In this document: positions 9,465 to 56,600 of the stretch, piece after piece
Numbering within the stretch: the stretch's first letter is position 1
How the letters are laid out: the number at the start of each line of letters is the position of its first letter
From: Callorhinchus milii
Taxonomy: Eukaryota
DNA length: 64,000 bases
NCBI RefSeq assembly: GCF_018977255.1
Contig: NW_024704743.1
Location: 25,298,001 to 25,362,000 of the forward strand
Direction of reading: 5' to 3'
Notes under the pieces: generated by a model
Database searches by the model: none
Told to the model about the DNA's origin: nothing
What the model saw: only the letters and a program-made list of their open reading frames with translations
Made by a program: the position numbers and the translations under genes

Positions 9465-9624
9465 CTAGCAATATAAACAGTGTTCACTTAATAATCCTTG
9501 CGTTTTGGGGATTTAAGTTTCACTAAAATAATTCAAGTAAAGTTACACAGATAGAATACAAACAAGACATTTCTTTGCATATTGTTAAAAATAGTATCAA
9601 GTATGGACATAAGCCTTTTTGCTT

Positions 9625-10290: not shown

Positions 10291-10689
10291 ACAGATAAAC
10301 AACAACTAAAATTATACAATCAATAAACAACAAATTTGAACTATTTCCTTTTCCTCAATCAAGATTAAGCTTTTTTTTTACAAAAAGCAACGGTATTAAC
10401 AAGGTTTACATTTCAAAAAAGATTACTTCATCCCTTTATGAGTTCAGCAATAGAACAGTCCTTAAATAATGATTTTGATACTATAATTACCAGACTGTCC
10501 GAGTTGGGTGATGCTCACTAAGGTGCCAAGTAGTGGTTGTACACAATTCTACTCCATACCAATCAAGTATTAATTCAATTGTGCTGCTCAGAGTCCAGGG
10601 TGGGGAAGAGACAAGCTATTCTTGGGATGCTCATGCATTTCTTATCGGTTCAGAGTAACACTGGCAGAGATCCGAGACCAGGCTAGCTG

Positions 10690-10982
10690 CTCATCTTTCG
10701 TTTCAAATCCCCTCGCTCCCTGGCACCTTCCTACCTCTCCAACCTCCTGCTCATCCCTCGCACTCTCCGCTCCACCAATGGAGGTCGCACATTCAGCCAT
10801 TACGCCCCGAAACTCTGGAACACGCTCCCTCAATCCCTCCGCCTTGCCCCCCTGAAAACCTTCCTTTTTGACTGTGCTTACGGTCACCTCCCCCCGGCTC
10901 GGAGTCAGGCTCCGCTATTGTTAAGCGCTCTGAGATGCTACTCTGTGTGAAGGGCGCTGAAAACGTGGAAGTTGTTGTTGTT
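10690..10982 (+). mobile_element. L2 LINE 3' end
   Basis: Same tail as the other L2 copies, ending in (GTT)n. Confidence 0.8.
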
Positions 10983-11773
10983 TCCCCTTGGCTACAGCTG
11001 GCACATGTGCTGGACTCTGTGAGAGGGTATGGACATGGCACATGTCATCCAGGACTTGAAACTCTAAAACCCACAACTTCATGTACATTGCTGCTATTGT
11101 TTTCACACCCATTATGTTTCGAGGAATAATAGAATTTTTTTAGATCCTAAAATAGTAATCACAGCGATTAAAACAATTGCCTCTACCCTAGACTCAGAAG
11201 TGTGACGATTCCTGCTCTTGGGTCAGGCATTCTCCTCTCTGAATAGAGTTGCTAAATTACTGCAAACAGTAATCTTATCATTATTCATTTTGTACAGGTT
11301 GATTTACATCTGGCAGGAAGATTCATATCAAACATAGATCAGAGCTGAAAGGGCAGCATGCTAAGCAAAACTCCTTCGCAAGGGAAAATTCACATAAAAT
11401 AAAGCAAAAAAGCTCAATTGCCCATTGTTTTAAAGGTTGTAACTTTAAGGCAATCCCGTATCATTGGAACACTGGACTCTTAACCCAGGTACCCAAATTT
11501 GAGGTCACTGTAGCTTTTTTGAAACACAAGCTCACTTTTCCAGCCTTAGAAACAAACAGTCTATTCATTTCATTGAACCTGTTCTAGTTGATTAGATCTT
11601 AGCAGATGTTTTCATCCCATTTCCCCACATCCCTCAATACCCTTACTTCCAAGTATCTGTTTAAGTTGTTGAGAGGATGCAGAAGACCAGGTGAACCTCC
11701 TTCTCAATCCTTTAATACTTAACAGAGAACAACGGTTTCATTTAGACAAGTAAAGACTGCCTTGCAGACCTAC

Positions 11774-11911
11774 CTTTTTCAACTGTTCCAAATGATGTGG
11801 AGCAATGTATTCCTGCAAAATGATTAGATGGAGGATTGCTTGTGCACTAGTTTCAAACTGGGCGGTCGAAATTTCAATTCGTTCCTGGAAGTCGTATTTT
11901 TCCTGAGTCAG
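11774..11911 (-). CDS. ZNFX1: ZNFX1 exon (LTQEKYDFQ...LQEYIAPHHLEQLKK)
   Basis: 138 nt, cag| and |gtagg boundaries, phase 0-0. Confidence 0.88.
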
Positions 11912-13186
11912 CTGCTCAGTTTCAAAAGAAATAATGTTAAAATGAGAGAATGAGAAAGAATTTGCATCTTTACAGCACCTTGCCATATCAAAATGTTAGT
12001 CAAAGTGAGGGAAAACATTTAAACTAACATGGTAGGGCAGAGGAAGGGAAGAAAGACAGAGAGAGAAGTAAACAAGCTTTGGGGAAAATGGGTAAAAGGT
12101 TTTGTAAAGATGAAAAAAGACACGGGGAACTAAGAGAGGTGGGCGAAATTAAACGGTCAAAACAGCAGACAAGCTACTTGCCTTTACACAAACACTAGGA
12201 ATATTACAAGTAAAGTGGGAGAAATAGAAACTCAAATAAGCTTGCGGTGCAATATGATAGTGATTACAGAGACATGGGTACAGCTCAGTCAAAATTAGGA
12301 GTGGAGTATACCAGGATAGAGGATCTTAGAAGGGACAGGGAAAACAGGAAAGGAGGAAGAGAAACATTATTAAAACCACCAATCATAGTGGTTGAAAGGA
12401 AGGTTATATTTGAATATTATCAGCTAGAATAGGAAGGGTTGTTAAACATTGGTATGAATGTTTTTTATAGCCCTCGTGGCTATAATGATATAATAGAATG
12501 TACGTACAGTACAGGCAGATTAGGGAAACTTGGTTTTAATGGGAGAATTCATTATAATAAATAATGATTGTTACATTTGGTCTAGCGTCTTTCACATCGG
12601 GAGGGTGGTCCAAAGCACTTCACAGGATATAAAGTGTGTGTTTTGTGGGGGAATGCGGCAGCTAATTTTGCACACAGCAACGTCCCCAATAGCCATGATG
12701 TGAATGAACAGTTTTATTTGGGGAGTTTTGGCCAGAACGCGGGTAGAAACTCCCTTCTCTTTTTGAATAGGGCTAAGCGATCCTTAAAGTCCATATGAAC
12801 AGGGAGACGAGACCTTGGCTTAAATTCTCATCCAAAGCATGGCACCTTCAGCCATGCCCCCTCTCCCACCAGCACTGCATTGGAGTTTCAACCTGGATGT
12901 GTGAGATCAAAGCACCACCAATGACCTTGAACCTACAGCCGTCTGACTAAAGAGACAATGTGCTATCAACTGAGCCACGGGTGTCTTGTATGTCTGTCTG
13001 GATACATTCATAGAAACATAAAATCTTGATTTGAGATAACCAATTCTCAAACAGCACATCACAACACAAAATATATAGTCAATTCCTTTTACAGTCTATT
13101 CTGTGAAGCGCTTTGAGACATCTCAATGATGTGATAAGGAGCTATATCAAATGCAAAGATTATTATTATTCTAACAGTATGCTCAC

Positions 13187-13335
13187 CGAAGCATACATGG
13201 CTCTCAGGTGACCTGGCTGACTCTTCCTGAAGTTTTTACACTTCCGGATCTCCTTAAGTGAAAACTTTGATATTATTTCACTGGTGCTTCTTCCACCCAC
13301 TCTGATCAAGTCAGTTTTCAGAAACTTATGAATCC
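13187..13335 (-). CDS. ZNFX1: ZNFX1 exon (IHKFLKTDLIRVGGRS...HLRAMYAS)
   Basis: 149 nt, tag| and |gtgag boundaries, phase 1-0, RVGGRS motif. Confidence 0.93.
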
Positions 13336-13899
13336 CTAAAACAAAAATAAATAGCACAGAGGGGGTTAGTCAGAATAACTTATTCATCAAAATCTTTCCA
13401 ATAATACCATAAACGACAAGGGGTGGGGGAGGGCGGGGTAATAAAAAAATAATTGCATGATCAAGTCAAAATAAATATTTTTAAAAGCGAGGATCAAGGC
13501 TGGAAGTTATCCAAGTCTGTGCCCTAAATATAGGCTCCACTGATATGACCCAACTCAGTAAATTCCTAAAACTGACTAGATAAGAAAAATATCAGGATGA
13601 ACAACAACCTATATGAATGAAGGTCCTTCAAACAGTTAATGTATATGAACATGTTCCCTCCTTCATTCATTTATTTACATTAAAACTTACCTTTATTTAT
13701 TTTGTTGCCTTTCCCATGAGAGTAAATAAAGATAATTTAATTAAGTCAAACATTTCTGAATGAGTCTAAACATTTTAGATAAAGCACGGGAGGGGAGGGG
13801 ATGGGAGGGGGGGCATTGGAAGAGGAGAAAAGCAGCAGTCTCAGAATATCCTAAATGAGAGTACCTGATAATTAGTTGAATCTATGACTATACCCGCAC

Positions 13900-14415
13900 T
13901 GAACATAGGAACAGGAGTAGGCCATTCAGCCCGTTGAGCCTGTTCCACCATTTAATTAGATCATGGCTGATCTATATCTTTACTAGAATTTCAAATCCAA
14001 TTTCCCGCTTTCTCCCTGTATCCCTTGATACCCCGACCTACCAAAAATCTGTCAATCTCTTTCTTGAAGGTGTGGATGGATCCAGCATCCATGACCTTTT
14101 GGGGGAGAGAGTTCCATATTTCTACCACCCTTTAAGTGAAAAAATGCTTCCTAATTTCACTCTTAAATGGTCTGGTTCTAATTTTAAGACTATGCCCCCT
14201 TGTCTTGCATTCCCCCAACATAGGAAATAGCTTTTCTGCATCTACCTTATCAAATCTCTTAATCATCCTGAAAACCTCTATCAAATCACCCCTCAATCTT
14301 CTAAACTCGAGGGAAGAAAACTACGTTTACGCAGCCTTTCCTCATAACTTAACCCTTTTTGGCCTGGTAACATTCTGGTGAACCTGCGCTCCACCCCCTC
14401 CAAGGCTAATATATT
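13900..14415 (-). mobile_element. CR1 LINE 3' fragment
   Basis: Reverse complement of the LRGDLIEVF-type region and the AATGGCCTACTCCTGTTCCTATGTTC tail. Confidence 0.85.
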
Positions 14416-14523
14416 TTTGTGTCAGTGTCATAACTTTTGTAATCTGCAAGGTAGCCATTCTACAAAAAAACAGAAATCAAGCTTTCGTCATCAATTACCT
14501 GTATAGAATTTTAAAGTCCTTAC

Positions 14524-14652
14524 CTTCCATAAACTGGTCTAATGCATGATTTGTGTAGCAAACCACAAGAATAGGAGCAGCACCAGTAGCCTGCCAAACA
14601 TTAATATTAGCTAGAAGAGTCTTGACAACTTTCAGTCCCAAGTAAGTCTTGC
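14524..14652 (-). CDS. ZNFX1: ZNFX1 exon (GKTYLGLKVV...ILVVCYTNHALDQFME)
   Basis: 129 nt; completes Walker A (GPPGT|GKT) across the intron and carries motif Ia TNHALD. Confidence 0.96.
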
Positions 14653-14879
14653 CTATAAATTTGAAACATTAAAGAGGACAAAAGGAAAATAATAAATAGA
14701 ACAGATAGTAAAATTGTAGTAAAACATTTTTTTTCACATTTCCAACAGAGATAGACTGCTGTTTCAGTAAGTTTGCCGATTAACATCTGAATTTATAGCA
14801 GACAGTTATTAGAAAGTATCTTCCTATCTGTAATGGAATGGCATGGAGCACCTCACTCTAATAACACTGTAAGAACAAC

Positions 14880-15200
14880 TATTGGTAGTACTCTCAGCTC
14901 AGAGTCAGAAAGTTGTGAGTTCAAATCCCATGTCGGGATTTGGAACTCATAGATGAGACTAATGCAGTGCCTGGGGGAGAGGGCACTAAATTGATGGAGG
15001 TGCCATCCTTCGTATGAGTCGTTAATTCAAGACTCTGTTTGCCTGTTCAGGTGGACATTAAACATCCCTGTGTAAAACATTGCTGTGTGCAACTTGCTGC
15101 TGTGTTCGCCAACAAAACACACAGTCACTGCACTGCACAGTAAATCCTGTTAAGCGCTTTGGATCTTTTTCCCCCGACACCAAATATGAGTATTATTATT
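14880..15200 (+). mobile_element. Older SINE with Deu-domain-like core
   Basis: TGCCTGTTCAGGTGGACATTAAACATCCC core; related copies at 12560-12980 (-), 28780-29170 (-), 43130-43540 (-), 45290-45410 (+) and 61290-61545 (+). Confidence 0.7.
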
Positions 15201-15407
15201 AGTGTAATAAAAAGACATTGGGACATAGAATATTAGGTTTTTAATAGGCACACTACATCACACAGGAGTGTCTTGATATAACTAATATGGGGCTACAGTC
15301 TAACTATAACTTTCCGGTATATTTAGCAAGAAGGTATAAAATATCAGCCTGCTGGGTACAGCGTAAAACAGCATTCACTTCAAATGACTTAATGAAACGC
15401 ATTTTAC

Positions 15408-17063
15408 CTGTTCCTGGGGGACCTTGGATAATGGCAAGCTCTTTGGTTAAAGCCAATTGTACTGCACGCATTTGCGATGCATCAAAGGTTAATTCCTCCT
15501 TCGAAGGCCACTTTGTGAAATCAAGCAAATTTTTCATCAAGATGTTTGGGGGCTCGTGCAACCTCATCCCATAATCCAGCAGGCCATCACCACTGGAAAT
15601 GGCATTATGAGGCCTTCTCAAGTCTTTGAGGGCTTGTTCTTCAATCAAAGGCTGGAGCGTGTAGGTAAAAGATCCATGTTTTATGTACTCTGGTTCTGAT
15701 ACCTCAGGGTGGCATTGGACAATGTATTTTTGCATAGGAAAATCATCAGCTTCAATCTCTTTAAGACCTTCCAGGACGTGTCGGTAGGCTTCAAAGTACG
15801 CGCTTGTTTCAACCATTAGAAACAAGTCTCCTGGCTTAACATCAGCCAACTTCAAGCGACTGTCTTCAGTGAATATAATGGTGATCAAACCCTTTTTCAA
15901 TTCTTCAATATTTCGGTTCGCCACAGTTGCAAACAACATATTTTTAAAACGATCTTTGGAAAGGCAAACGAGTGACCCATACAATAAGCGCTTGGAGTTT
16001 TCCCATTTAATGGACTTTAGCAACTTCATGTTAAAATGAACTTGGTACAAGATACCATTTTGTGTGCACAATGGTGCAGATATTTGTGCATCAAAATAAA
16101 TTCGGATGTCATTAATCTGTCTCTTCTTCAGGTCTTTATCTTCGTATGCTAATAGTTCAGAAATCCCTTCTCTCAACGGGCGAACAAAGTCTTCTCGGAG
16201 CAGGCGAAAATGTGTGTCGAGGTATGTGACTACGTCAGGATATTTTCCAGTGACGATATTTGGCCTCACAAAGGGCTTCTCAATCAAATGGATGTCCTCA
16301 TAAGTTGGATATATTGAAATTAGTCTGAAGTCTTCTATTGCAGGGTCTGTGAAAAAGTTGTAGTTATCTGAATTCAATGCCTTTTCTCGTTTTTTCTCTT
16401 GTAAAAGCTGGACCATTTGCTGAAGGTTTTCTAAACTCTTCTTAGTTTCTACATCAATGGGTATTCCAAAGGACTCCTGGTGGTTCATAGCTGATTCCAC
16501 CAAAGTGGCCAGTAATGACACTTCCATAAATCCACTTTTTGGGTAGACGCTAATTATCTCAGTGAGCAGCTTTAGAATGTAAGCAAGATGTTTGAACCTT
16601 TCCAAGTGTTTTTCTATAGTCACCTCTGTGTGAATGCTAACAATGAACCTAGGCAAAGTGATTTTCACAAAGGGAGAATCTTTGACCGTACCGAGCAGAT
16701 ATTGTAAATTCTGCCTGTTAGATCTGCATTTAATTGCGGTCATGAAAATTTCCAGGAGCAGCACAATTGAGTCGTTGTTGATTTCATTCTGGTCTAAGAA
16801 TTCCTTGAGACCACTCCCTGGAGCAGCTAACTTCATTACAATGTCTGAAGGATTCTTTCCTGACAGCTCCAGCAGAGCCCCTTTGCCTAGTCGCCGTGGG
16901 ACGCGTGGAACAGATTGACCACGTTTATTTTCCCTCTTGGTTTTACGGTTGTCATTTAGCTCTGGTTTTTCACAGACCTGGCTTCTGCTGCGTTGCTTTG
17001 AAGAATTTTCTTGGTCACCATCAGTATTGGCACTACCCAGTGCTTGGCGGTAGGGCTGCCTGC
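15408..17063 (-). CDS. ZNFX1: ZNFX1 large exon (N-terminal helical region through IIQGPPGT)
   Basis: Includes the 510-aa ORF up to the donor at 15407 (YLDTHFRLLREDFVRPLREGI, WENSKRLLYGSLVCLS, YFEAYRHVLEGL). The frame stays open upstream to the acceptor ttctag| at 17066-17064. Confidence 0.96.
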
Positions 17064-17129
17064 CTAGAATTGTACGGGGGGTGTGGGAGGAGGGTTAAAA
17101 AACATATACATTAAAAAAAAATGAGTGTA

Positions 17130-17445
17130 GTCCTGTAGCTCAGCTGTTAGAGTGCTGACCTCGCAAGCGCAAGACCAGGGTTCAATTCCCGGTAGGGCCA
17201 AATGATGAGCAAGTCTCCACACACTTCTGTTTACCTAGCAGTAAGTTGGAACCCGGTTGTTAGTCGATTGGCAGATCGCTTTTCAGGGGGTAATAATTCC
17301 TTCCAAAAAAAAAATTGGTCACTCAATCCACAACTGTTTGTGGGACACTGCTGTCACTATACTTTACAGTACATTCTGTGAAGCGCTTTGAGACATCTCT
17401 AAGACGTGATAAGGCGCTATATCAAATGCAAGGATTATTATTATT
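17130..17445 (+). mobile_element. tRNA-headed SINE, variant subfamily
   Basis: Same head and tail, plus an internal TGTTTACCTAGCAGTAAG...GTTAGTCGATTGG segment. Confidence 0.88.
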
Positions 17446-18209
17446 TTAGTCATTGCAGACTAATATTAACATATTCGCTAAGCAGTGCTATTTGTAACTT
17501 GCATTTTACAAATGTTAATTGCCGACAAACAAAAATGTCTGGTTGCAATTCCTAAAGGACAGAAAAGTGTGGAGGAAAACAAAAGCTGGCACGCTATAGA
17601 GCAATTACAAAATAGTCAGCAAAGCCTGTAGAGAAAAAGGCATGGATCATTTACTAAAGTAGAGCCTTCATAGGCGGCTCGGGCTAGAGAGGCAGAAAAA
17701 TAAGTTGTTTAAGAGTTATTTCACCATCTTCCTATTTCGCAAACAAGCAGCAATCAAGGACATTAAAACACAGAAGTACAATGCTTTTGGAAGAAAACAT
17801 GACAGCATACATTTTGGAAATGAATGTTCTCTGCTGAATTTCTTCTGTTGTTTAAAATTAACTTTGTTACCAATGTTTCCCTTCCCATCTCTATAATTTC
17901 ATCATGCAACAATATTTTTAAAAAATACAAGACTTCAAAAATATTCAGACCAGAAATCAGCTCCATAAAGGAGGGTAAAGCTTAACTGTGTGAGTAAATG
18001 ATCTTGTACTTCTTTGAAAGGAGAGTGATGGTGAGGGAGGGGGGAGAAATAAATTTCAGAGTTATTCCAGAGTTACGACTGTTTGTGGGACACTGTTGTG
18101 CGCAATTGGCTGCTGCATTTCGCCCACAAAATATAGTCAATTCACTTTACAGTATATTCTGTGAAGTGCTTTGAAGGGTTATTATTATAATAAAGTCTTC
18201 ATTGCTCAC

Positions 18210-18407
18210 CTCGTTCTTGGTGGTGCCTTTGTGTCTCATTCTCCAAACTGCCTCTTGAGAGGCTGAGCAGATCAGTAAAGCTACTATGGAGCCTGGGATT
18301 TCCGGAGTGTACATGTGTAGTTGGAGGAAATTGAGTATTGTAAAACACCTGATGGCTTTGTAAACCCAGGTGGGGTTCTCCTTTTTGGCCACGTTTCTGA
18401 CACTGTC
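18210..18407 (-). CDS. ZNFX1: Putative ZNFX1 N-terminal exon (QCQKRGQKGEPHLG...RHHQER)
   Basis: 198 nt, tttcag| and |gtgagc boundaries, open in the phase 1-1 frame required by its neighbours. Confidence 0.72.
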
Positions 18408-19201
18408 CTGAAATTTAAAATTAAAAGTTGAACTTTCTCAAAAAGCATACTGTTAATAAATAACAACTTGCTGGATGATTGCTCATCAAATAACTGCAAG
18501 ACACAAGATCCGCTTTGGAGCAAAAGTAATACTGCAGATGCCATCTTCCACCTTATCTTCAAAATGGGCTCAACATGTACCAAACCTCAAACGGTATAAC
18601 AATTAAACAGGTAAAATTAGTTCAAGTTCTTTGAAAATAGCATTGAAATGTCTATTGCAAATGTAAGGTTCGGTAGAGATCCCTCAAATGTTTAGTTAAT
18701 AGTAGGTAGATCAGAATGCAACAAGGCAGGATAACATCAAAATTGGCCAAAGGGCCTTCTTAAACAAACTGATCTTGTCATTTTGCCTTTGTTTTCTATC
18801 ATCAATCCAGCTTGCTGTTCATTCACAATTAGCTTACTAATACTTCTATAAAAACACTCACACTCCAATCTTTACCAAAATCCTAATATGTTACATGGAA
18901 TGCATAGTCCTAATCTCTAGTTTTATGGCATTTGTATACAGAATTCCGTCATGTGAGGACAGGTGACAATGCTTCAAAATCCACCCTCACCATTCCTTAG
19001 TTCAGTGCTTTTTAATCTGAACATTGATGGCATCCCTTCAGCACTACCAAGCAATTTTACTCACTACGGATGTTAGGCCAATTGGATTATCTGCATTACA
19101 ATTTGGTAACAAAAAACAAAGTGCTTCTTTTAAACCAGGCTTTCCATTCCCCTCTCCCTCCAAAGGATCCTGTTCAGCTCTCCAGTCTGCCTTTCACTCA
19201 C

Positions 19202-19675
19202 CTCTGCCTTGCGTTCTTTCTGCATAACCTCTGATTCCAGATGGATGACCTCCTCTGTGACCAGACTGATGACCACCTCGATTTCCAGTCTGATGGCCTC
19301 CCCTGTGACCAGACTGGTGGCCTCCCCTGTGACCAGACTGGTGGCCTCCCCTGTGACCAGACTGGTGGCCTCCCCTGTGACCAGACTGGTGGCCTCCCCT
19401 GTGACCAGACTGGTTTCCAAAGTTGTGTCCTTGTTGAGCTTGGCTCTGATCATCTAATCTCGAATGTCCTTGAATTCTTTGCAAAGATTCAGATTGTTGA
19501 AAAACAGCAAGATACTGGCTACTCCCACCGAAACTTCTATCTTGTGAACGATGGCGGTTTGGCTGACTGTTACCAGAAGCATGTCCTCTGCTCTGCTGGC
19601 CGATGAGGAAAGGCTGCCCAAAATATGCTGGTGTATTGGGCAGATAGTGAGAAAAGGTTTTAACAAGTTTTGTTC
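19202..19675 (-). CDS. ZNFX1: Putative ZNFX1 N-terminal low-complexity exon with GGHQSGHR repeats
   Basis: 474 nt, ccttag| and |gtgagt boundaries, fully open, phase 1-1. Confidence 0.78.
19229..19420 (-). repeat. Coding 24-bp tandem repeat (GGAGGCCACCAGTCTGGTCACAGG), about 8 units, encoding GGHQSGHR
   Basis: Directly visible: four consecutive identical units plus degenerate flanking units. Confidence 0.95.
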
Positions 19676-21041
19676 CTAAGGTGGGTGAGGAGTCACTCAG
19701 TCCAAATTATAGAATGTGGCATTTATTCTATACAGTACAATGAAAACCAAAATTGTAACTTTCCATTTGTAATTATTGCAATATGCAGAACATTTTATCC
19801 CAATAGAATAGCTGTTCTGAAGATAAAGTAAAGGGTGGAATTTCCTAACACAAACCATTGAGGTGGAATTCATGAATACCTAGAGATTAAATAGATGCTT
19901 TGAAAGAGAAAGAATATTAAAGATTATGGAGAACAATCAAGAGAATGGGATTAGACTAGGTGATTCGTGTGGAGAAAGACACCAACAGAAACTAGTGGGT
20001 TGGATGACCTGTTTCTATGTTGTAACATTTATGATTCTGTGATCTTTATAATGATAATTCCTGATCTAGTTTCCTATTCCACATTTCAGATAAGCAAAAC
20101 TTATTCTGGCTACATGTCATAAAGCTGCCAAAAAACATTTAGTTTCTGGAGAGACCTACACTTACACAGTCACTATACTCTAGAGTAAAACTGTGAAGCA
20201 CTTTTATACAATGTGATAAGGCATGATATCAAATATTATTATTATTATCATTAAGGCTAATGAACCATGAGATCTGTAGAAATTAGAGGTAGTTTATAAT
20301 TTAGTGGGGATGACGGTTGGTTGTGTTGACAGTGAAGGCAAAGCAATTTTCAAGAGGATCAAATGAGCCACTGAGTTGCGGGCAGGTGTAGAAATGTAAA
20401 GGTGAGAAATATAGAAGCAAGAGCAGATAAGATAGTGAGAGTACGGGGTGGGGGAACAGAGTCAATCCTGTTGGGATTTTGTTTCAGGAGAGAAATAATA
20501 TCATGAAACGAAAGTCTCAGGAACTACAAATAAAATGGGATTGTAGACAAGTTGAAAGCAAAGTGGTGTTTCCTGGGTTGTTTGGGGTATTATCTGGGAT
20601 CATGAAAAGAACGAGCAGATAATCAACATCAGTTAGGAAAATTGTGCATGCAGTAAGGATATCAAATTTGTAGACAACTTAAGAACGTCATTTCAGGTAG
20701 AAGGAATAGTTAAAGGAAGAATAATTCTATGTAAATCTATGTGACACACCATTTAACACTGTCTAGACACACTCTGGACACACATTAATACAATGTTTAC
20801 TGGGAGAGATGTTGAAGTGAAAACAAAGCAAGCCAGAGTAACTAACTACAAGAGATTATAATCAATTACAGTAGTTTATTTACATTTAGGTCCTAGATCC
20901 ACCCATTTAAAAACGATTTGTAAAATGTGTTTGAGTATATAATTTTTTTTACAGAGGATGCCATTTTGTTTTGAAATCTAAATTTGTTCTCATTTGCATA
21001 TATCTGCCATTGTCTGATATGAACACATGAAAACCGCTCAC

Positions 21042-21120
21042 CTGCCATATCTTCATCCTTACATGTAAGATCACGTGACTGCTTTCTGCTTTGGTTTGAA
21101 TAACTTCTAGAAGATGCCAT
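21042..21120 (-). CDS. ZNFX1: Putative ZNFX1 first coding exon (MASSRSYSNQSRKQSRDLTCKDEDMA)
   Basis: Acceptor tttcctag|aaATGG and donor GCAG|gtgagc in phase 1, which joins the downstream exons in frame. Confidence 0.75.
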
Positions 21121-24475: not shown

Positions 24476-25906
24476 AGCATCTGAGATTTGGTTGTGCAAA
24501 GACACACAGACGCACATACCATCCCACCAGGGCCACTGCTGTTGCTGACAGTCCAGTGTGGACTTGCCTGTGACAACCCTCTCAAGTGCAAATGAGAAGC
24601 TTATTTTTTTATATATTAAAAAAAATACTGGTCACCCAACAGAGAAATGTCATTTATTACGTTATTTTAAATATAGGTTCATTTTGCAACTGCCCCTCTC
24701 CACTTCCATCACTTTTTTTTTAAGAAAGCAAAACCAATCTGGTGCATTGCTCTGGCCCCCACCTTCTGAAACTCCATCCCACATTCCCTTCGCCTCGCCT
24801 CGCTCCGCTCCCAACCCCCATTTCCTTCAAGGCATGCCTCAAGACCCTCCGATTTGACCGTGCCTTCGGCCACCCTCCTACCCTCCCTGATCTCTCCCAA
24901 GAAGCTAGAATCCTCCCACGTGGGACAGTGAGAGACTGAGATAATGAGAGAGACTGGGACTGAGAGAGGGAGAGAATATATTATAGTGTTGTGACTGTGT
25001 TTTGTGGGAGAGACAGAGAGAGAAACTGAAAGAGAAACTGACATGGTGAGAGAGAGAGCGAGAGTGATTGGGAGAGACTGGGAGAGAGAGAGGCTATGAG
25101 AGAAAATATATTGAAGGAGTCCTCCCAGCTGAGTATAATGTCTAAACAAAATGTCTGTGTGTCAACTGACATTCCATATCCGACCCTTTGGTTTCAAGCG
25201 AACCTGCAACCGGTACAGCTAGTCACTAATAAAGTATGTTGGACAGAAAATGTAATAAATGTTTATTTGGTATTGAACACAATTTTGTACTGAACAAACA
25301 GAGCTAGGACAGAGGAAACAAACAATCACCAAACTATCACTCTCTCCACAATTTAGACTACTGCAAGGAGTCTCTCTACACTTTTGACCATTGTAGTTTT
25401 AAATGTTTATGAAACTTGAATTCAAGATTTAACAGTAGTTAAAATAATCTACAAAAAAATAACTCCATTGGCTAATGGACAAACAATACTTCACAATCAG
25501 TTATCAGAGAACCCTTGGCTTTGGCAGCTTCAAGTCTCTCTGCCATGAGAGAATAAGTCCTGAAATAAAAAAAATGTTAGTTACAAATGTATATTTAGAT
25601 TGGTAGATAGAGCCAATTCACAGGCGGATGACATTTCTGGCTTTAACCCTTTGAATCATTCTGATGAATCTGCCCTGCAGTGTCCAAAACTGAACTCAGT
25701 ACTCCAGATGGGGTCTGACCAAGATTAAGTTGAAGACATGTCCCTGTGAGTCAGCATCATAGACTTCAGATTCTACCACCTATGAAATTACCACAAAAAA
25801 CTTATGTTCACTTCCTACTGAATTATTTACAGTAAATAGATTTATAAAACCAATGCTTTTTGATTACTGTGAAGCTGGATAATACATTCTTACATGGGCT
25901 GCTTTA

Positions 25907-25944
25907 TCAAGATCTTGGGTAGTCCGGTCCAGGTTTTGAAAGAC
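25907..25944 (-). CDS. SNRPB-like: SmB-like last coding exon (GLSKPGPDYPRS*)
   Basis: Strong acceptor tcttttcttttag|; 12-residue ending with the same length and PG/PR positions as SmB' GPPPPGMRPPRP*. Confidence 0.8.
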
Positions 25945-26434
25945 CTAAAAGAAAAGATGTAAGATGATCATTGCAGTTTGCATCACATACTTAACAGACT
26001 TGAAACAATTTTAAAATGGGACAATTTTTCCACTCCCACTTCAGCATGAATAAAAAAGAATCGTAAAATAGAAATGACAAGAACCAAATCTGGTAATAAT
26101 GATCTTGGTCTGCAAACACCATTAATTTGCTGAATATGTAACTTTATGCTGAAATTTGTCTCAAGATTATGCTATGCAAGTGTACATCAGTGCTCAGTGA
26201 CCTTCACAATTAAGATGCACATTAACATCAGTTAGTCATTTTTATTTGAAAATCTATTGTGGACAATAAAAATGTAATTAACACTAAGAAGCTATGATAA
26301 AGGATAGAGAAAAAACTTTGCAGAACCAATGATTTGAATGATTTGGATTGTGGGATATTTATAGATTCAATATGAGACAGGATCAAAGAAAAGAGCACAA
26401 AACAATATTGGAGTTGAATTTGTAATATTCCCAA

Positions 26435-26700
26435 ATAATAATAATCCCTCCATTTGATATAGCGCCTTATCATGTCTTCGAGACGTCTCAAAGCGCTTCT
26501 CAGAATATACGTGAATTGACTGTATATTTTGTGGGCGAAACGCAGCAACCAATTGTCTACAACAGTGTCCCACCAACAGTCGTGGATTGAGTGACCAAAT
26601 TATTATTTAATTTTTTTTTGAGAGATTATTACCCCTGGAAAAACGATCCACCAATCGACTAACAATCGGGTTCCTGCTTACTGCTAGATAAACAGAAGTG
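26435..26700 (-). mobile_element. SINE body and tail
   Basis: Reverse complement of the family body and tail. Confidence 0.85.
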
Positions 26701-26951
26701 TTTACAAATATTTATAAAAGGGATGTGATGGACTAAGGTGCATTTCCTTGATCACCTTGAGAAGTTAAATAGAAAGGTGGTGGGGGGGGGCAGTGAGGGG
26801 GGGAGGGGAGCATTGTCGAGTGCAGGAAAAAAAGGCAACCGAGTGAAATGGATGATGCCTTTTTTTACTTTCAAGCTTATTTTCTCACTGTGGCAGCCAT
26901 TGGAGTGAAGAGGATAATGTATTTTTGTGCCCAAGATGAATCAATATCTAC

Positions 26952-27074
26952 CTTTCACCGTAGGTATCATTGGTAGCATCATCTCTGGAAGAATTACCAC
27001 GAGACCTCCTCTGCCAAGTGGCATTCGCATTAGCCCAAACAAAGTTTGCATGCCAGGAGCTGGTGCCAACAGGT
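26952..27074 (-). CDS. SNRPB-like: SmB-like exon 6 homologue (LLAPAPGMQTLFGLMRMPLGRGGLVVILPEMMLPMIPTVK)
   Basis: 123 nt, tatag| and |gtagat boundaries, phase 1-1; aligns with SmB [23 protein letters not shown]... Confidence 0.85.
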
Positions 27075-27169
27075 CTATAATTAAAATATCATTTGTAATT
27101 TCCAGCAATTGATGCTACAGGAATCTTATTTTTCAGTCTTTCAGGATTTCAATTATATTCCGATCAGTG

Positions 27170-27860
27170 TACAACTCTATCCCAACTCTATCTCTCTGCC
27201 TCCATCCTCGACTCTAGGACTACTGCTGACCTGACAGGAAGTCTAACAGATATCAAGTCCTGGATGAGAGCGAATTTTCTACAGCTGAACGTCAACAAGC
27301 CTTGAGGCTCTCCTGATTGTCTCCGGTCAGTGCCTCCACACCTCAGGCACTGACAGCATCACCATCCAGGGATGCACACTCCACCTCACCCATGTCAGTC
27401 TGGAACCTTGGCATCCTCTTTGACCCTCAACTGTCCTTTCTACCCCACATTCATGCCATGACCTGCTCTGCCTTCCCCCACCTCCGCAACATCGTCCGGC
27501 TGCGCCACTGCCTTACCCCTCAGGCTGCCGAAACCCTCATCCATGAATTTGTCACATCTAGGCTCGATTACACCAACTCCCTACTTGTCAACACTTCCCT
27601 CCACAAGCTGCAGATCATCCAGAACTCTGCAGTTTGTGTCCTCTCCGGCAGCAGGCTCCGTGACGCCATCACCCCCACCCTCACTCCATGTCCTCCGCCC
27701 AGCCCGACCCACCATTGGCGGTCGGCCTTGCCCCACCCTTTGGAACTTCATCCGGCATTCCCTTCGTGTCGCTCGCTCCCTTGCCTCCTTGAAGGCGTGT
27801 CTTAAAACCTTCCTCTTTGACCACGCCTTTAGTCACCCTCCTACTCTCCACCCTCCCCCC
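27170..27860 (+). mobile_element. L2 LINE 3' fragment in an SmB-like intron
   Basis: LTPQAAETLIHEFVTSRLDYTNSLL...LQIIQNSA. Confidence 0.9.
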
Positions 27861-27938
27861 GATTCTGTATTGTATATTGCTAACCTTAATTGGGATACTC
27901 TCTTAAACCTGTGCTCACATAACCCTCAGGGAACCTAC

Positions 27939-28062
27939 CTGGATGCAGCTCACCAGGGCTCATCATAGGTGGACACCCTCTCATTGGTACATAAGCTTGA
28001 GGGAAAGCAGAAATACATGTAGATACTGGAACTCCAGTCGTTCTAGGTTGTGGATCCATTAC
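27939..28062 (-). CDS. SNRPB-like: SmB-like exon 5 homologue (VMDPQPRTTGVPVSTCISAFPQAYVPMRGCPPMMSPGELHP)
   Basis: 124 nt, tgtttag| and |gtaggt boundaries, phase 0-1; aligns with SmB VMTPQGRG...[23 protein letters not shown]. Confidence 0.85.
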
Positions 28063-28199
28063 CTAAACAATAAAATGTTCACCACTAAACTTATAATGTA
28101 TAATCAAATACTATTTTATTTAATCTCATAATAACATGATGATACAATGAAAATATCTTTATGTTAAATGCTTTGTCTTTTTTTAATAAAAGGGAAAAA

Positions 28200-28560
28200 A
28201 ATGATATAGCGCTTTATCAATTCTTTGAGATGCGCAAAGCGCTTCACAGAATATCCTGTAAAGTGAATTGACTGGATATTTTGTGGGCAAAATGCAGCAG
28301 CCAATTGCACACAGCAGTGTCCCACAAACAGTCATGGACTGAGTGACCAAATTTTTATTGTTTTAAGGGATTATTAAGCAATCCGTCCATTGACTAACAA
28401 CCATGTTCCCTTTTTGATTTGTGCATGGATCTTTAACATCCACCTGAACAGGCAGATGAAACCTTAGTTTAACTTGTAAATCTAGGTAAACAGAGGCCCT
28501 ACCCGGGAATCAAACCTGGGTCCTCTCGTTTGCAAGGTGACTGCTCTAACCAATATGCTA
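28200..28560 (-). mobile_element. SINE, degenerate
   Basis: Reverse-complement head and tail are recognisable. Confidence 0.8.
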
Positions 28561-31349
28561 TGAACCATGTAAAACCAGCTTCCAAATGAAGACTGAATTT
28601 AAAAATGTTTCTATAATTCTCAGCAATTTTAAAATGTTAAGACAGAATGGTCTCATGAACTAAGACTAGGTGGAATTTCTCAGCCTCATTATTTAAATAC
28701 CCCAAATCACTTCTTTGGTTTCTGCCTGCTATGGTTAGCATAACCATTTGTGTCATAAACTTACAGCTACAGTTTATAATAATTGCATTAGATACAGGAG
28801 CTTATCACGTTGACAAGACATTTCAAAATGCTTCATAGGCTATATGGTAAAGTTTAATGACTGTGTACTTGTAGACAAATGCAGAAGCCAATTTATACAC
28901 CCTAGTGACCGATAAACAGCCATGAAGTGAGTAACCAATTTTATCTGGAGGATTGTTGGCCAGGACACCTGGAACAACTCCCTTCTCTTTTTGAATTGTG
29001 CATGGGATCTTTCACATTGAATGACGGTGAATCACAGAGAAACAATAGAGTTGGTTTAAGTTTAAGCTTAAGGGAACTCATAGAAAATGATCTATGAATT
29101 CAAATTACTCATGAGGGGCTTGAACCTACAACATCCTGATCAGAGGCAATTGTGCTAACAACTGCATCAGGCTTTTGTGATTAAGCAACTTTTAACAATT
29201 GCAGCACGCAGAATGCTTTTTAAATGCCGTCTTACCTAACTTGCTACAGGGCGATATTTACTATCTGACAAACTCGACTGTTACTCAATACAAAAATCTC
29301 TGCGGTTCTGTAACTACATTCTGATGGGGCTACACAAGCTACCCTCTCTCTACCACCCACCCCCCACCCTCCGCCTCTCATTTGACCCCAAAACTCCAAG
29401 CTGACTGGTGTTTCTTAACACAAAAAGGAATATATATTCACATAAACCAGGAAATAGGTGAAAACAAACAGGGTGTGAATAAATTGTCTTGTGAACTGAA
29501 TATTAAAGTACCTGCTAAAGTGGAAGCAGAGTACCATTATTGATACACACATAGGATAATTGTATGTATGCTAATTTTCCCTATTCACTCAATATAAGTG
29601 ATAGAAGGAAGAGATGCTTTCAAATGCTCCGAGATCCTACCAGCATGAAGGGACGATATAAATGCAAGCGGTATTATTTTACCGACAGATGTGAACATTT
29701 GGCACTGAGCAGCCATAAAAANTTATTAATTTATAAAAAATTTTAAGGGATTATTACCCCTGGAAAAGCGGACCACTAAATCGACTAACAACCAGGTTCC
29801 TACTTACTACTAGGTAAACATAGCCGTGTGGAGTAAGAAAACTTGTTTAACATTTTGCCCTGCCCGGAAATTGAACCCAGGTCTTCTCGCTTGTGAGACG
29901 AGTGCTCTAACCACTCTAACCCAGAACTCCACAGAAGTACATAGAAGTCTATGTTTATAGCACAAAGGATGAACAAAGACTAAAGGAACAGTAATAAACA
30001 CTGCATTTTATAGCCAACACAACTCTCCACAACAGATCCACACAACAGACTATCCTTTTCTTGTGAAGTTGAAAAGATCCTCAGGTGGGTAGCCTTAATT
30101 GTAATTACGGTATTTATTTAATTCTAATTACTATACTGTACTTGTTAAAGCATTCCTCGTGTATTAATTACTTTAAAGCTTACAGAATTTTATCGACAGG
30201 CAGGAACAAGCAACTACTGCTACCCTTACTACGGAAATTCCATACAAAATTCCCAGCTTTATTTGGGGGTCAGCTGGGTGTCTGACACATGCAGAAACCC
30301 ATCATCATGCTTAAGAGTACCCATATCAAATCAAACTGAGATTTCCATGCCCCACAGACCCCAGAGTGTGCGTCGGGGTACTGCTGAAGTCTAACCGGAT
30401 AAAGCCGCATATCTTGCCACTGATATCCTTCTCTGGCCAGCTTTCCCGCTACTTGTCCAGCTAAAATCATCCTATCCATTAGGACTTTGGGTTGCAGAGT
30501 TAACTGTAGCTGAGTGGGAGGATTTCCAGCCCCCAGTGACAAGTTGACGCTTCCAATTCCTGCCGAACAGCTGTGCTGTCATCAGGAGTGGCCTGGAATC
30601 TGCAGACCCACCTAGTTCAGGAACCTGGCTTGATACCGACATTTTTTGTCACCTTGGAGCTCCACGTTGTTACTGTGCCATAGAATTGTACTGTAATTAT
30701 CTTGGATGCTCAATGGCGTGACTCAAGGCATAAAAAAATGAACAAAATCTATAAATGCATTATGGTAACTTTGTAAAACAAAGAACAGGCTTTTGATCTG
30801 ACAGCACAAAACCAATACATGGCAATAAAAATGTGTTAATTTTTGCCAGCCAGTATTTCTAAAATCCTACTGTTGCAGATGTCCTTGCTCAGCAGTGTTT
30901 TACAGCAAATGATTAAAATATCTGTATTTTTCCAAAATAGAGCCACTTCATTTCAGGCACTGTAACACTGGTCCGAAACACTGACTGTCCAGCACCTGGG
31001 ATGTCCTTCCGACATGAAAGGCACTATACAAATGTAATTTTGTTGTTTTTGTAAGCATAATTATTTTATACAGTATCCCTCCAATGGCTGAAGTAACATT
31101 TTTGCATCAATGTGACATGGAGAAGGGCAGTCTTTCAGGTGTGAAGCCAAAAGGTATTTTAATGGATTTCCACTGATTGTTTAACAAAAATTCTAGACAA
31201 TCCATAATGAAGCTGCTTGAATTTTTTTTAAAAAGAAATCAACAATCCTGTCTAATCAATCCTGTCTTATCAGGACAACAAATCTTTCCTGTCAACAGCA
31301 GTGCCCTGGAATACTGGGTACCAGCCTGGCTCAGGAACTGGACTACCGA

Positions 31350-31634
31350 GACTGCCTGAGTTCAATTCCAGGCAGAGGGCGAAACCTTGGGCAAGTTTCC
31401 TTACTCCACACGCCTAATAATAATCCCTCCAAAACAAAAAACAATAATAAAATTGATCCTTTTCAATCTACGACTGTTTGTGGGACATTGCTGTGTGCAA
31501 TTGGCTGCCGCGTTCGCCCACAAATATACAGTCAATTCACTTTACAGTATATTCTGTGAAGCACTTTGGGACGTCTTGAAGACGTGAAAAGCGCTATATC
31601 AAATGCAAGGATTATCATTATTATTTATTATTAT
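31350..31634 (+). mobile_element. 5'-truncated tRNA-headed SINE nested in an older repeat
   Basis: Begins near the B box; both flanks match 61130-61285. Confidence 0.88.
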
Positions 31635-32234
31635 ACAGGATGGCCTCAATTCTAACATTCCATTGCCAAACATGTCATCTTGGAGCCAGTTTAGCTCCAA
31701 GGAGACCCAGTTTGCCTACCTTACGTGCCAGTCTTGATATTCGCAGTCCAAGTCCATTACCACATATCAGGTTTACCCAGCACCAGCTGCTTAATGCGTA
31801 TAATCCATAGGGACTTTTGCAAATAGATGTGCCCACTGTAAAGCAGGTCCCTCCCTCCCTGCAGCCACATCCCATGTTTGCCACAGATCCACCTCACTGC
31901 TTGATCCTGGACTTTGCAAATGGTCTGGAAGAAGCCCCTCTGCTGCATCCCTAGGAGCTTGGATTCATAAAGAAGGTTCACTTTTATCCTTAATAATATC
32001 AGTGCATTTGAAAATTATCTGACATCTAATAAAACATACGCATGTATCGCACCCTTCAGTTAAACGTCTCAAAGCTCTTCACAGAATGAGATCAGTTAAA
32101 ACTGAAGTGGATGTAGTGTAGGCAAAATAATTAAGTGGAAGCACACTGGATTTTTGCACCAAAAAGGAAACTACATAAAAATCTCACTTTGTAATAAGCT
32201 TTAAGTAAGGGTAAAAGTGTAAACTGCTGCTTAC

Positions 32235-32346
32235 ATCTCTTATGGGAGGTCCCTCTACTGTCATGGACACAAGACTTTCTCCTCGAAGAAGGACTAGGCC
32301 AAGTGACCTCTTTTCTTCTCGCTCAGCCTGCTTACAATTCTTCAGC
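32235..32346 (-). CDS. SNRPB-like: SmB-like exon 3, Sm2 motif ([38 protein letters not shown])
   Basis: 112 nt, catag| and |gtaagc boundaries, phase 2-0. Confidence 0.95.
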
Positions 32347-32774
32347 CTATGTCAACAACAACAACAAATTACACTTGCATAGCACCCTTCATATTGTAAA
32401 GACGACCCAGGGAGCTGGACAATCAGGGATTTTGGACCCGAGCTGGGAGATGGGGTCAGAAGGGGAGAAGGGTAGGATGACAGGGGGGTGACCGAAGGCA
32501 CGATCGAAGAGGAAGGTCTTCAGACGGGACTTGAAAGAGGCAGGAGAGGGAGTGAGGCGGCGGGATTGCGGGATAGAGTTCCAGATAGGGGGCGCGGAGA
32601 TGCTGAATGTCTGACCCGCAATGGTGGGATGGGATGTGCGGAGGACCTGAAGCAGGCCCAGCTTCCCAGCACGATCAATCCCAGCACAAGCACATAGTCA
32701 ACAAAGACAATGCTCATGATGCATGAAAAGCAAAAATCACCAAATACCAATACAGAAAATATACGCACACATAC

Positions 32775-32926
32775 TTGATTCTTCTGAATTCATCACAGTC
32801 ACAGAGAATCAGGTTCATGTGCCGATCGAAAGCTTTGAAAGTTCCAATAAAAACACGGCCATCCTGAAGTATACACCGCATTCTGTGGTCCACATATTCA
32901 ATCATCTTACGGTTTCTTCCAACAGG
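32775..32926 (-). CDS. SNRPB-like: SmB-like exon 2, Sm1 motif ([50 protein letters not shown])
   Basis: 152 nt, tttttag| and |gtatgt boundaries, clear SmB/SmN sequence. Confidence 0.96.
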
Positions 32927-33478
32927 CTAAAAAAAAACAAACAAACCCAAACTTCGACTGCCACAAAAAATGGGTACAGTGAACATTGACCCAAAGGGGG
33001 AAAAAAAATACACCTGCCCCAGAATGCAAATCATGTACACGATTAGACTCTTCAATTATCAGTGGAAAAGGCCAAGCATTAAACTGTGGTTTTGCTCCAC
33101 ATCATTGCTAACCATTCACCAGCAAAATTAAGAGTAAAGCCAATGAGCCTTTGTCATTTAGATCCATTGACCAAACCAAATGGGGGAATAATTGCATCTT
33201 GCTTTTATGTACGGTTTTTTTATCATTGTCTATCAGTGGGGGTTGCAAAGAGGCCCTGCAGGTCTCAAGCTTTTCTCCAGATAAAACAGAGGCAAAACGA
33301 AGAACTTCTCGTCTGCAAACGCCCTGCATTTTGGGACCAGTTTGCACTCCAGCAGCTGAGAGAGAGGGCGAGATGGGTCTGACCAAGTAAGTCACTGAGA
33401 GCTCACCCCAAGAGGGGAGAGGCAACTTGCAAAGTGGCAGCTATCAGACTACCTCCAAACTACAAGGCGAGCACTTAC

Positions 33479-33481
33479 CAT
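33479..33481 (-). CDS. SNRPB-like: SNRPB/SmB-like exon 1 coding part (ATG only)
   Basis: gcaATG|gtaagt; as I recall, vertebrate SNRPB exon 1 ends at the start codon; joins exon 2 in phase 0. Confidence 0.8.
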
Positions 33482-51860: not shown

Positions 51861-52442
51861 CAGCACAGATCTCTTTATCATTTCGCTCGGATGGTTGTTC
51901 CGTGGCCCGAACACACACTCACTCACACTCACACACACAAAAAAACACCCCGAGACTCGAGACCACCACCATCCCAAACACTTTATTTTGTGTTTTTTTT
52001 TGTTTTGCAAAAAAAAAAACCCCAATGAGAACTGGGGGGTGAGTTTTTTTTTTTGGGGGGGGGGGGGGTTGAACGAAAAGCATTCACAGGGGGTGTATGT
52101 GTGTGCATGTGTGTGTGTGTGCATGTGCATGTGTGTGCGTGTGCAAGAGCTTTAAACCCCAACCACGTTACGTGTTGCACAAGGGGATGCACGAGATGTT
52201 TCCACCCTCCTCCTCCTCCTCCTCCTTCTCCTCCCCCCGCGAGAAAAAAAAAAGGCGAGTTTTTTTTTTGCACCAGAAAGTCCGATCCGAGGGCGTGCGA
52301 TGTGAAGTGAGAAACTCGAAGTGAGGGCTCTTTTTTTGTGTGTGTTTGTGTTTGTGTTTGTGTGTGTGTGTGCGCGTCCTCTTTCCTTTTTTTGCAGCAC
52401 CAGTCGCACCTGCAAACTCGTTCCAGGTCCCCACAGAAGAAC

Positions 52443-52504
52443 ATGATCCCACTCGGCGAATGCATGTACGCGGGGAGGAAACGAAGGAAACCCGTCCAGA
52501 AACA
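52443..52504 (+). CDS. AHRR: First coding exon of an aryl hydrocarbon receptor repressor-like gene (MIPLGECMYAGRKRRKPVQK)
   Basis: Exon 52398-52504 has a polypyrimidine acceptor ...tttgcag| and donor AAACA|gtgagt (phase 2, as in AHR/AHRR). The peptide matches the AHRR N-terminus MIPPGECxYAGRKRR(R/K)PxQKQ. The bHLH exon was not found inside the window. Confidence 0.85.
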
Positions 52505-52659
52505 GTGAGTATCACTTTCAATCTTTTTCTTTCTATTTGCATTTTTTTTTGCAAAAAAAAAAATCAAAAAAAAATCAAAAAAAATCAATCCCCCAAAAAA
52601 AAATAATAATAAATAAATCGACTTTTTTTGAAATCCGGTTTGCGCTTCAGAGATCACCG

Positions 52660-53630: not shown

Positions 53631-56600
53631 AATAGAGAAAGAGCAGCGCTGAATGGATCAACAGAACTTTCCAAAAATTGAAGAGAAATGGGTGATCTTA
53701 AGGAAGAGGATCTTTCAAGGGATGGAATTTCCATTGTTGACCAAAAAAAATGTAACTTTGGAAAACGTCTATTTGAGAAATTATGTAGTAGGAAATCATT
53801 TCAAAGTTGTCACATGGTTTGAAAATGTCATTATTAAACATATAGATGTGCATTTCATTGTGAAATTCTACAGAAGAAATTCACTTTTGAACATATTGAC
53901 CTATACAGCACCAAGCATACAAATATAAATTCATGATTTTATATATATATATATATAGACCCACCTGCATGCATTATTCGACAAGTAGGTCAGTATTTAA
54001 CTATTACATTTACAGATACATATGTGCAGGTGCACTTTGCATTACATACAATTTACAAGTCAAACTAATTGAAACAGTACAAAAAGGAAGTTTTTTTTCC
54101 AATTTTTTTTCTCTCTTAAGGCTTTCTTAATTCGTCTTCACGCACACAGTGCACAGTTATGAAACTCCCCACAATAATGCCATTTTATCTGGGATTGCAT
54201 AGTTCTTTTAAAAAAAAAGATATTGTAATGCTCCTTTTTCCAATCCATGCATTTCTTACAAAGATTATCTCAACACATTAGCAAATCCATGCTAGCACTT
54301 CTTTGTCCATGTGGTATGCATCAAAAATTCCATGTTAAGGAACTTGTTAGCTGAAAGCATATCCCCGATGGGTTGAATAAAATATGTTGCTTTCAATTTT
54401 TATGCAAAAGTGGTTGTGTTGTGCTTGATGTCTTTTTGGATTGGAGCTCTCTAATTCAATTTCGAATAAAAGGCAGCTAGCTGATGGTATTAATAAATAT
54501 TTTATTCACTGCAGTTTTTTATAAAAACAGTAACTTCAAGCATTTGTGTAGCCTTCGAAGGATAATAATAATCCTTGCATTTGATATAGCACCTTATCAC
54601 GTTGCTTCAGTGCTTCACAGAATATACTGTAAAGTGTATTGATTGTGTTGTATATCATAACAATATAATTTCAACAGGATGACTGAATAGCAATTCAAAT
54701 ATAAACTTTACTAGTTAACTACATAATGCGTGGAGCCACAATAAGAGCTTTCTAAGTCACCAATAGCGCTATAAGTTGCTCCTTCAACTAGTTATGCTAC
54801 AGCTTAAAGTTTTAACTTCTCAAACTCCGTGCTGTATTACACATGGACATGAAAATACGCCATAAAACATGAAATGTCTTTGGGCATAGAAGACCTTAAG
54901 AAAACATGGAATGAGAAAAGGGGCTGGCCATTCAAGTGCATTGAGCCTGTTCCTTCCAATTGACATGTGTATGATATTGGTCAAACAACTTGTAACCTTG
55001 TCCAGATAAAACTATGATTTTACCCACTTTATATTTCATTACAAGCCAGTTTTTTTATCTGTTTTTAGATTCTGGGAGCCTTTCTTGTGGCCTCTAAGTT
55101 GTAGTTGGCTGATTGCTAGTTGGGTCATTCTCTGCATAGATACTGATCAACCTATAAAGGAAACACAGTCCAAAAACCCTGAATGAATTGAAACAAATCC
55201 CCCAAAATATACAGTCAATTCACTTTAAAGTATATTCTGTGAAATGCTTTGAGACATCTCGAAGACGTAATAAGATGCTATATCAAATGCAAGGATTATT
55301 GTTATTAAATCCAAGTGTTATCTAATAGGAGATTTCTGGGTCTTGCCAGGCAATATTTCAGAAATTCTTTGTAATATTTATTTTGTATAATGCATTCTTT
55401 TTATTACAAGATACCTTAATGTTATAGTTCATCATGCGCTCTAAGCACAAATCTGCCAGTGTTATTATAGTGTACTTTCTGTTCGAAGTACAACTAAATA
55501 ATAATACATAATAATAAATAATAATAATAATGCTGCCACATTTCCCCCACACTCCACTTTACAATATATTCTGTGAAGCGCTTGAGACATCTCAATGACA
55601 TGTTAAGGCGCTATATCAAATGCACAGATTATTATTATTATACCTCTATCATTTGCTTAATATACTAATGTGCTGCTCCTGCGTGTATTTATGCTAAATG
55701 TTTGGAATTTCTTTGCATAGGCTCAGCAACACCAGCACCAAAATCCCATTCTATTTATTTAACCCATTACTTCACGTGTAATTCCTGTGCTGCTCAGTAA
55801 TGATTGCTTTCTTTCTTTAATCGGTTCCCAGTTGCATCCAGATAGTGCACTGGTGATGGATTCTCCACGAGCTGGCACTGAAGAGAGAATAGCAGGCCAT
55901 GCTGAAGAGAAAAGTTTGCCATTCAGATCTTTTTGAAATCCACACGATTAAAATACACTTCGGAACAAGTTTAAAATCTTCCCATTTTCCTGTTGATTTT
56001 GTATGGAGCACCTTTTTTTTAAGCTCCGAGTGCTGATAACATTATCAGGGCAATTGTCTGGGAGACCACACCAGAGCTAACTCCAGTGCATGCAGAGAGC
56101 TTGAGTGAATTTTGTTGGTGTGTCAATTCAGTTCTCTTTAACTCTGTCGGCCTCTGGAATTCCTCTGTTCGTCATCGCTTAAAAGTTTAAAGAAAATTAC
56201 CCTTGAAAGAAAACAAAAAAAGTTAATTCTAGCAGTAATTGCTTCATGACTAATTTTGAATGGGTGGACTCACCTTTTGAAACTTGCATGCGACAGCAAT
56301 AGCTGTTTTTAGCAGTCAGCTGTTATAACTGAAAGTGTGCTCTTGATTTCCAATTCTAGGTGTTAGCTTGGCTCAAATACTTTAACTCTCACTTTTGGGT
56401 CAAATAAGTCCAGATAATTACTTTCAAGTGTAGTGACTGCGTATGTGTATTTTTGTAGGTAAATGTGGTAGTCAGTTTATCCACAGCAATTCAGCTACAA
56501 ACAGCCAACGGCCAATTTATCTGGAGCATTGTTTGCTTTTGCAGTGCAGAATTGTCTTGATTGTGGCACGCACTGGGGTAAAAAGTATTTTCACGCTCGT

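Follow-up and report, generated by a model that had tools for sequence, protein, structure and literature searches.

The stretch of elephant shark (Callorhinchus milii) DNA analyzed here, hereafter the window, comprises 64,000 nucleotides of contig NW_024704743.1 and carries a ZNFX1-like paralog (3..21120, minus strand), a divergent, intron-containing SNRPB-like gene (25890..33481, minus strand) and, on the plus strand, the first coding exon of AHRR. The coding segment of this exon (52443..52504) begins with the ATG at 52443, spans 62 nt or 20 codons plus 2 nt (phase 2), as a preliminary description of the locus had correctly read it, and encodes the AHRR-type N-terminus together with a basic nuclear-localization stretch. 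A GT donor follows at 52505, and an acceptor-like pyrimidine tract ending in AG (52380..52397, with the AG at 52396-52397) lies upstream of the ATG. A degenerate pattern built on the first 14 AHRR codons matched once in the window and in none of 100 shuffles, and the exon is 94% identical to its elasmobranch orthologs. Compared with PDB sequences, the 20-residue peptide yielded weak AHR matches only (E about 0.8). A motif search of the window, including the 11.5 kb remaining to the right of the exon, returned no bHLH or PAS exon elsewhere; these exons of AHRR are placed beyond the right edge of the window. The CpG observed/expected ratio is 1.04 in 52140-53140 vs 0.38 for the whole window, and this ratio, along with the word content of one of the sequencing runs described below (X1), points to 52140..52397 (plus strand) as a probable CpG-rich 5′ UTR or promoter-proximal stretch. 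Directly upstream of the AHRR start, about 5 kb (46560-51900) consist of near-continuous simple repeats, CA/TG-rich and with a C-rich block at 48400-49200. Two long microsatellite blocks flank a consensus donor at 50853 (plus strand), which lies 1.5 kb 5′ of the exon.

Transcription of the exon was examined by searching sequencing runs with 52140-52640. The search listed 22 runs, 20 of which contained some of the stretch; runs of other organisms with a small share of it (0.04) were not counted as evidence. Four runs from two studies (X1, X2, X5 and X6; X1 from study P1 and X5 from study P2) were aligned to the exon region. Their kind was labeled 'RNA?' through a guess of the search tool, and they were taken as RNA because their contigs end spliced. 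Contigs of X1 and X5 both end exactly at 52504 and continue into an identical loose end that supplies the rest of the split codon, proceeds in frame as residues 21-30 of the annotated C. milii AHRR protein (P0013) and reads up to the K-S-N motif opening the basic helix. The exon was spliced to the bHLH exon in two of the four runs, one from each study, with usage of the donor at 52505..52510, while the X2 contig ended short of 52504. The bHLH exon that the preliminary description had proposed to look for downstream is therefore joined to the present exon in RNA, its genomic copy lying outside the window.

On the 5′ side, all six contigs reaching that far (four runs) crossed the AG without mismatch up to 52386/52387, where the repeat mask has its edge, defining 52386..52504 as the minimum transcribed exon. 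Among the contigs of the four runs no loose end was reported at 52398, and the deepest contig was unbroken across this position. Thus, of the strong acceptor and donor originally ascribed to the exon, the donor is in use, whereas the acceptor-like element was read through in four of four runs aligned. Run X1 contained 0.61 of the sampled words of 52140-52640, whereas the 107-nt exon by itself would be expected to yield a share of 0.16 and 52140-52504 one of 0.71; together with the read-through at 52386/52387, this word share argues that the dominant transcript extends upstream of 52398. A minor upstream exon could still be served by the donor at 50853, as contigs drop rare forms and this donor falls outside the stretch that was compared with the runs. 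The ATG exon of human AHRR is preceded by a non-coding exon, whereas that of C. milii appears to be read through on its 5′ side. Finally, one X6 contig joined the AHRR donor to 55832, yielding an alternative downstream exon (55832..55882, plus strand; 51 nt, depth 3.67, single contig) that lies behind a pyrimidine tract and AG, carries an early in-frame stop and may possibly represent a poison or terminal exon. An ATTAAA is present at 55947, within the 55832-55952 region of this exon.

A protein search retained 34 matches among 38 candidates, most of them named AHRR and the others hypothetical, unnamed or 'AHR-like'. P0013 (UniRef A0A4W3JZ31, XP_007887853.1), the 807-residue AHRR of C. milii, is 100% identical to the exon peptide over residues 1-20, and its next residues are those of the spliced RNA loose end. 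The gene was therefore already annotated, no difference being seen between this record and the exon. The assignment of an AHRR-type first coding exon made in the preliminary description thus holds on three counts, namely identity to P0013, AHRR-named matches and splicing to the bHLH exon, and the exon is real, expressed and part of a known gene present in a single copy. The newer RefSeq model, XP_042202112.1 (P0137), has its C-terminal part in common with P0013 but is devoid of exon 1 and of the bHLH region, and carries in their place an unrelated N-terminus that looks like an annotation fault. The RNA contigs back the older model, and the newer one should be corrected.

The ZNFX1-like gene encodes a protein of 2059 residues (P0166), of which residues 1-1815 are inside the window. 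In the best 120 of its 1278 matches, those nearest to it carry the name 'ZNFX1-like'. To place it, a FastTree phylogeny was computed from 40 rows drawn from these best 120 of 1278 matches plus one cluster member, and midpoint-rooted with no outgroup. The tree separated 14 canonical, human-type rows from 26 'like' rows with a support of 100. The window gene fell in the latter group, outside the human ZNFX1 clade, in the company of 25 other proteins from sharks, rays, coelacanth, lungfish, ray-finned fishes and amphibians; no amniote member of the group occurred among the best 120 of 1278 matches. Heptranchias, Pristiophorus, Latimeria and Protopterus possess both canonical ZNFX1 and ZNFX1-like. 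The window gene is thus probably an old duplicate, most readily a whole-genome-duplication ohnolog, that was lost in amniotes, and we infer that the human AHRR locus looks different because of this loss. Human 20q13 is paralogous to regions of 5p15, 18q and 16q, and a ZNFX1 ohnolog beside AHRR is therefore expected from the vertebrate genome duplications. The second coding exon of the ZNFX1-like gene harbors short Gly/His/Gln-rich repeats near 19235-19460.

In the SNRPB-like gene, the ATG forms the end of exon 1 (33481-33479) and is followed by LSM exons at 32926-32774 and 32346-32235, the assignment of the 3′ exons being tentative. An LSM domain is present and 39 of the 50 residues of exon 2 are identical to human SmB; judging from its sequence, the gene is probably a second SmB gene. 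Its proline-rich tail is rewritten. The naming of the two neighbors as ZNFX1 and SNRPB in the preliminary description was thus partly wrong: the former is not the ortholog of human ZNFX1, and the latter, being divergent, is probably not plain SNRPB. The neighborhood had seemed unexpected because the gene next to AHRR was read as the ZNFX1 of human chromosome 20 rather than as a ZNFX1 paralog.

Linkage between AHRR and ZNFX1-like was then compared across species, with contigs of equal size taken to denote the same chromosome, not adjacency. By this measure the two genes shared a chromosome in 23 of the 26 species with both values, including 17 of 17 chondrichthyans and six of six non-teleost bony vertebrates (bichir, gar, two salamanders and two frogs). 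They were linked in none of the three teleosts tabulated; AHRR is duplicated in teleosts, and one of the three sits on small scaffolds. Protopterus was left out of the count, both of its contigs reading round 2,000,000,000. In C. milii itself, the ZNFX1-like records P0286 and P0287 are on a contig of the same size as that of the AHRR record P0137. RefSeq numbers of the two genes were consecutive in five of 18 species (S. canicula, S. torazame, Hypanus, Hemitrygon and Pleurodeles); the gap was 20 or less in 11 of 18 and exceeded 300 in four of 18, although such spacing is a loose guide, the unlinked ZNFX1 of Heptranchias being only about 200 numbers away from AHRR. On a single 414,709-bp contig of S. 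torazame, the locus tags of the ZNFX1-like gene and of the ORF holding the AHRR first exon differ by two, as do the GenBank numbers of the two genes in C. punctatum; a single intervening gene would fit the SNRPB-like gene of the window. In Heptranchias, canonical ZNFX1 is carried by a 55-Mb contig, and AHRR and ZNFX1-like by one of 172 Mb.

The relationships of AHRR were analyzed on the bHLH-PAS-A region with IQ-TREE (59 rows). AHRR proteins formed one clade (100/100) on a long stem, in which chondrichthyans (100/96) and bony vertebrates (99/95) formed sister groups, matching the species tree, and the C. milii protein was found inside this clade and outside the AHR clades. A FastTree run on 139 rows rooted the AHRR clade among ray-finned fishes instead. 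A preprint (10.1101/2022.07.13.499904) likewise places cartilaginous-fish homologs in the AHRR clade. The AHR/AHRR phylogeny that had been called for thus returned a single AHRR clade following the species tree, with the C. milii gene as a 1:1 ortholog. Taking these findings together, we put at about 93% the probability that the elephant shark has one AHRR, a 1:1 ortholog of human AHRR, whose coding sequence opens with this exon and which lies beside a ZNFX1-like gene as it did in ancestral jawed vertebrates, an arrangement judged ancestral from the ZNFX1-like side.

In the C. milii protein, bHLH and PAS-A domains come after an N-terminus of the AHRR type, and the bHLH-PAS-A region matches the human AhRR-ARNT structure 5Y7Y at E 3.7e-100, with 61% identity in a fold search. 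The protein has no Q-rich stretch, its 30-residue segments containing no more than 5 Q vs 10-16 in three AHRs, a low content like that of bony-vertebrate AHRRs. C-terminal SUMO-type motifs, which play a role in repression by AHRR, are common to both, two being present in C. milii vs four to five in the six bony-vertebrate AHRRs checked. According to two reviews (PMC12808330, PMC12076877), AHRR pairs with ARNT, binds xenobiotic response elements (XREs) and recruits co-repressors. By analogy with the family, the basic stretch encoded by the AHRR exon would bring the protein into the nucleus, where it would pair with ARNT via bHLH and PAS-A; the pair would then bind XREs, and the C-terminus, equipped with SUMO-type motifs and devoid of a Q-rich activation domain, would repress AHR targets.

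Outside the window, the protein has a further property. Reviews describe AHRR as devoid of PAS-B (PMC12076877) or of a portion of it (PMC8671103), whereas residues 288-385 of P0013 and the corresponding residues of its orthologs make up a conserved, full-length PAS-B-like segment. Scored with an HMM built from 33 AHR PAS-B segments, 11 of 11 chondrichthyan AHRRs reached 83-110 bits in matches that cover almost the entire domain, with 41-49% identity to AHR (103 bits and 49% for C. milii). Scores were 77-80 bits in the AHRRs of coelacanth and sturgeon, 41-56 in those of bichir, amphibians, turtle, bird and gharial, and 25-32 in those of platypus and dunnart; three placentals scored below 10 or not at all, and the HMM found nothing in the AHRRs of gar, bowfin and two teleosts. 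Pfam PAS_11 was above its cut-off in eight of nine chondrichthyan AHRRs, C. milii included, vs none of 12 from bony vertebrates. The segment is under constraint, since chimaera and elasmobranch sequences are 68% identical over it, near the 75% of PAS-A and above the 43% of the C-terminal region. In an AlphaFold model built on an alignment of 136 sequences, AHRs among them, and therefore biased toward the PAS-B fold, residues 301-370 reached a pLDDT of 79-89 while strands A and I were not formed (pLDDT 46-60). An earlier prediction on 16 chondrichthyan AHRRs, in which PAS-A was unfolded too (mean pLDDT 28), was uninformative.

The AHR ligand pocket is lined by H291, F295, F351, L353, S365 and Q383, as listed in PMC12808330. 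The corresponding residues in C. milii AHRR are N, L, F, V, A and P, so that one of the six human residues is identical (F351), the positions of H291, F295, L353 and Q383 are changed, and the A at 365 is the residue of non-mammalian AHRs; the AHRRs of rays and Heptranchias retain H291, F351 and Q383. The C. milii protein differs from AHR, AHR1 and AHR2 (e.g. 7ZUB, 8QMO, 8XSB) in falling in a separate clade and having no Q-rich domain, and an AHR-type, five-stranded PAS-B with all six pocket residues was not found in it. Because the model is missing two central strands, ligand binding by the chondrichthyan PAS-B is doubtful, and the segment is likeliest to be a remnant that folds in part and is retained for protein-protein contacts. 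A bolder proposal would see in chondrichthyan AHRR a surviving intermediate between receptor and repressor, whose PAS-B still binds ligand, HSP90/AIP or the PAS-B of ARNT, such that the repressor would be chemically regulated in sharks, rays and chimaeras, and whose domain was lost stepwise, independently in gar, bowfin and teleosts and in placental mammals. We regard this as unlikely on present evidence; rays and Heptranchias, with H291, F351 and Q383 in place, would be the best candidates for a chemically regulated AHRR. A search of the literature outside most subscription journals found no paper on the PAS-B remnant of shark AHRR, so that this remnant may already be known, nor one on AHRR with AHR3 in shark or tying ZNFX1 to AHRR.

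Other readings of the locus were weighed against that of a single AHRR in its ancestral place. Cartilaginous fish might have kept a second AHRR paralog, as the preliminary description had suggested, the other copy residing at PDCD6/EXOC3 or the two ohnologs having been lost reciprocally; the gene order in human is PDCD6-AHRR-EXOC3. The match lists extend to the best 120 and best 150 entries only, and a species-like tree is compatible with reciprocal loss. However, the P0013 search (2232 matches among 8000 scored candidates) returned, in its best 120 of 2232, 11 chondrichthyan clusters with one AHRR per species, the lowest scores in these best 120 being those at which AHR1-type proteins set in. 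An index-free search listing 150 representatives at 50% identity contributed 11 unnamed rows to the AHRR clade of the 139-row tree, none of which grouped with shark sequences, the two basal ones having teleost AHRRs as best matches; the 47 representatives left out of that tree for short coverage were closest to AHR (30), bony-vertebrate AHRR (17) or shark AHRR (0). Furthermore, a salamander gene named AHRR by NCBI has the same ZNFX1-like neighbor, and a second paralog is therefore quite improbable. The preliminary description had also entertained a translocation of AHRR, in the C. milii lineage, into a region homologous to human chromosome 20, on which ZNFX1 and SNRPB are located and which both neighbors bring to mind. 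We consider this very improbable, given that the neighbor is outside the human ZNFX1 clade, that the canonical gene of Heptranchias is on a different contig from the AHRR/ZNFX1-like pair and that this linkage extends from sharks and rays to bichir, gar, salamanders and frogs. A single AHRR per chondrichthyan species among the matches listed, with a synteny common to other vertebrates, is an outcome that the preliminary description had itself named as refuting its inference, and the neighborhood ceases to be unexpected.

Were the gene to encode a ligand-activated AHR, for example shark AHR3, and not a repressor, this would account for a PAS-B-like segment above the Pfam cut-off and for the name 'AHR-like' given to shark orthologs in some databases. 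Its placement within the long-stemmed AHRR clade, an N-terminal signature absent from every named AHR in the tree, the presence of SUMO-type motifs, the absence of a Q-rich stretch and the single human pocket residue retained make this extremely improbable. That the exon might be an orphan or pseudo-exon draws on the empty 11.5 kb to its right and on the truncated XP_042202112.1 model; with splicing to the bHLH exon in two studies, inclusion in both the older RefSeq model and the UniProt entry, and 94% identity to elasmobranch orthologs, the chance of it is close to nil.

As originally flagged, then, the AHRR exon matters little, belonging as it does to a single-copy gene that was already annotated and has kept its ancestral place. 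The recognition that the ancient neighbor of AHRR is a ZNFX1 paralog which amniotes appear to have lost is of modest value. The graded PAS-B remnant shows a repressor arising from a ligand-activated receptor, and if the shark domain still bound ligand or chaperones, the feedback of dioxin signaling in cartilaginous fish would depart from the textbook scheme. Between 46383 and 57855, and hence within 5 kb of the AHRR exon, there is no canonical XRE (TNGCGTG), the element through which AHR would induce the gene and a motif observed seven times in the window vs 11.3 expected; bare GCGTG cores are present at 52137 and 52293.
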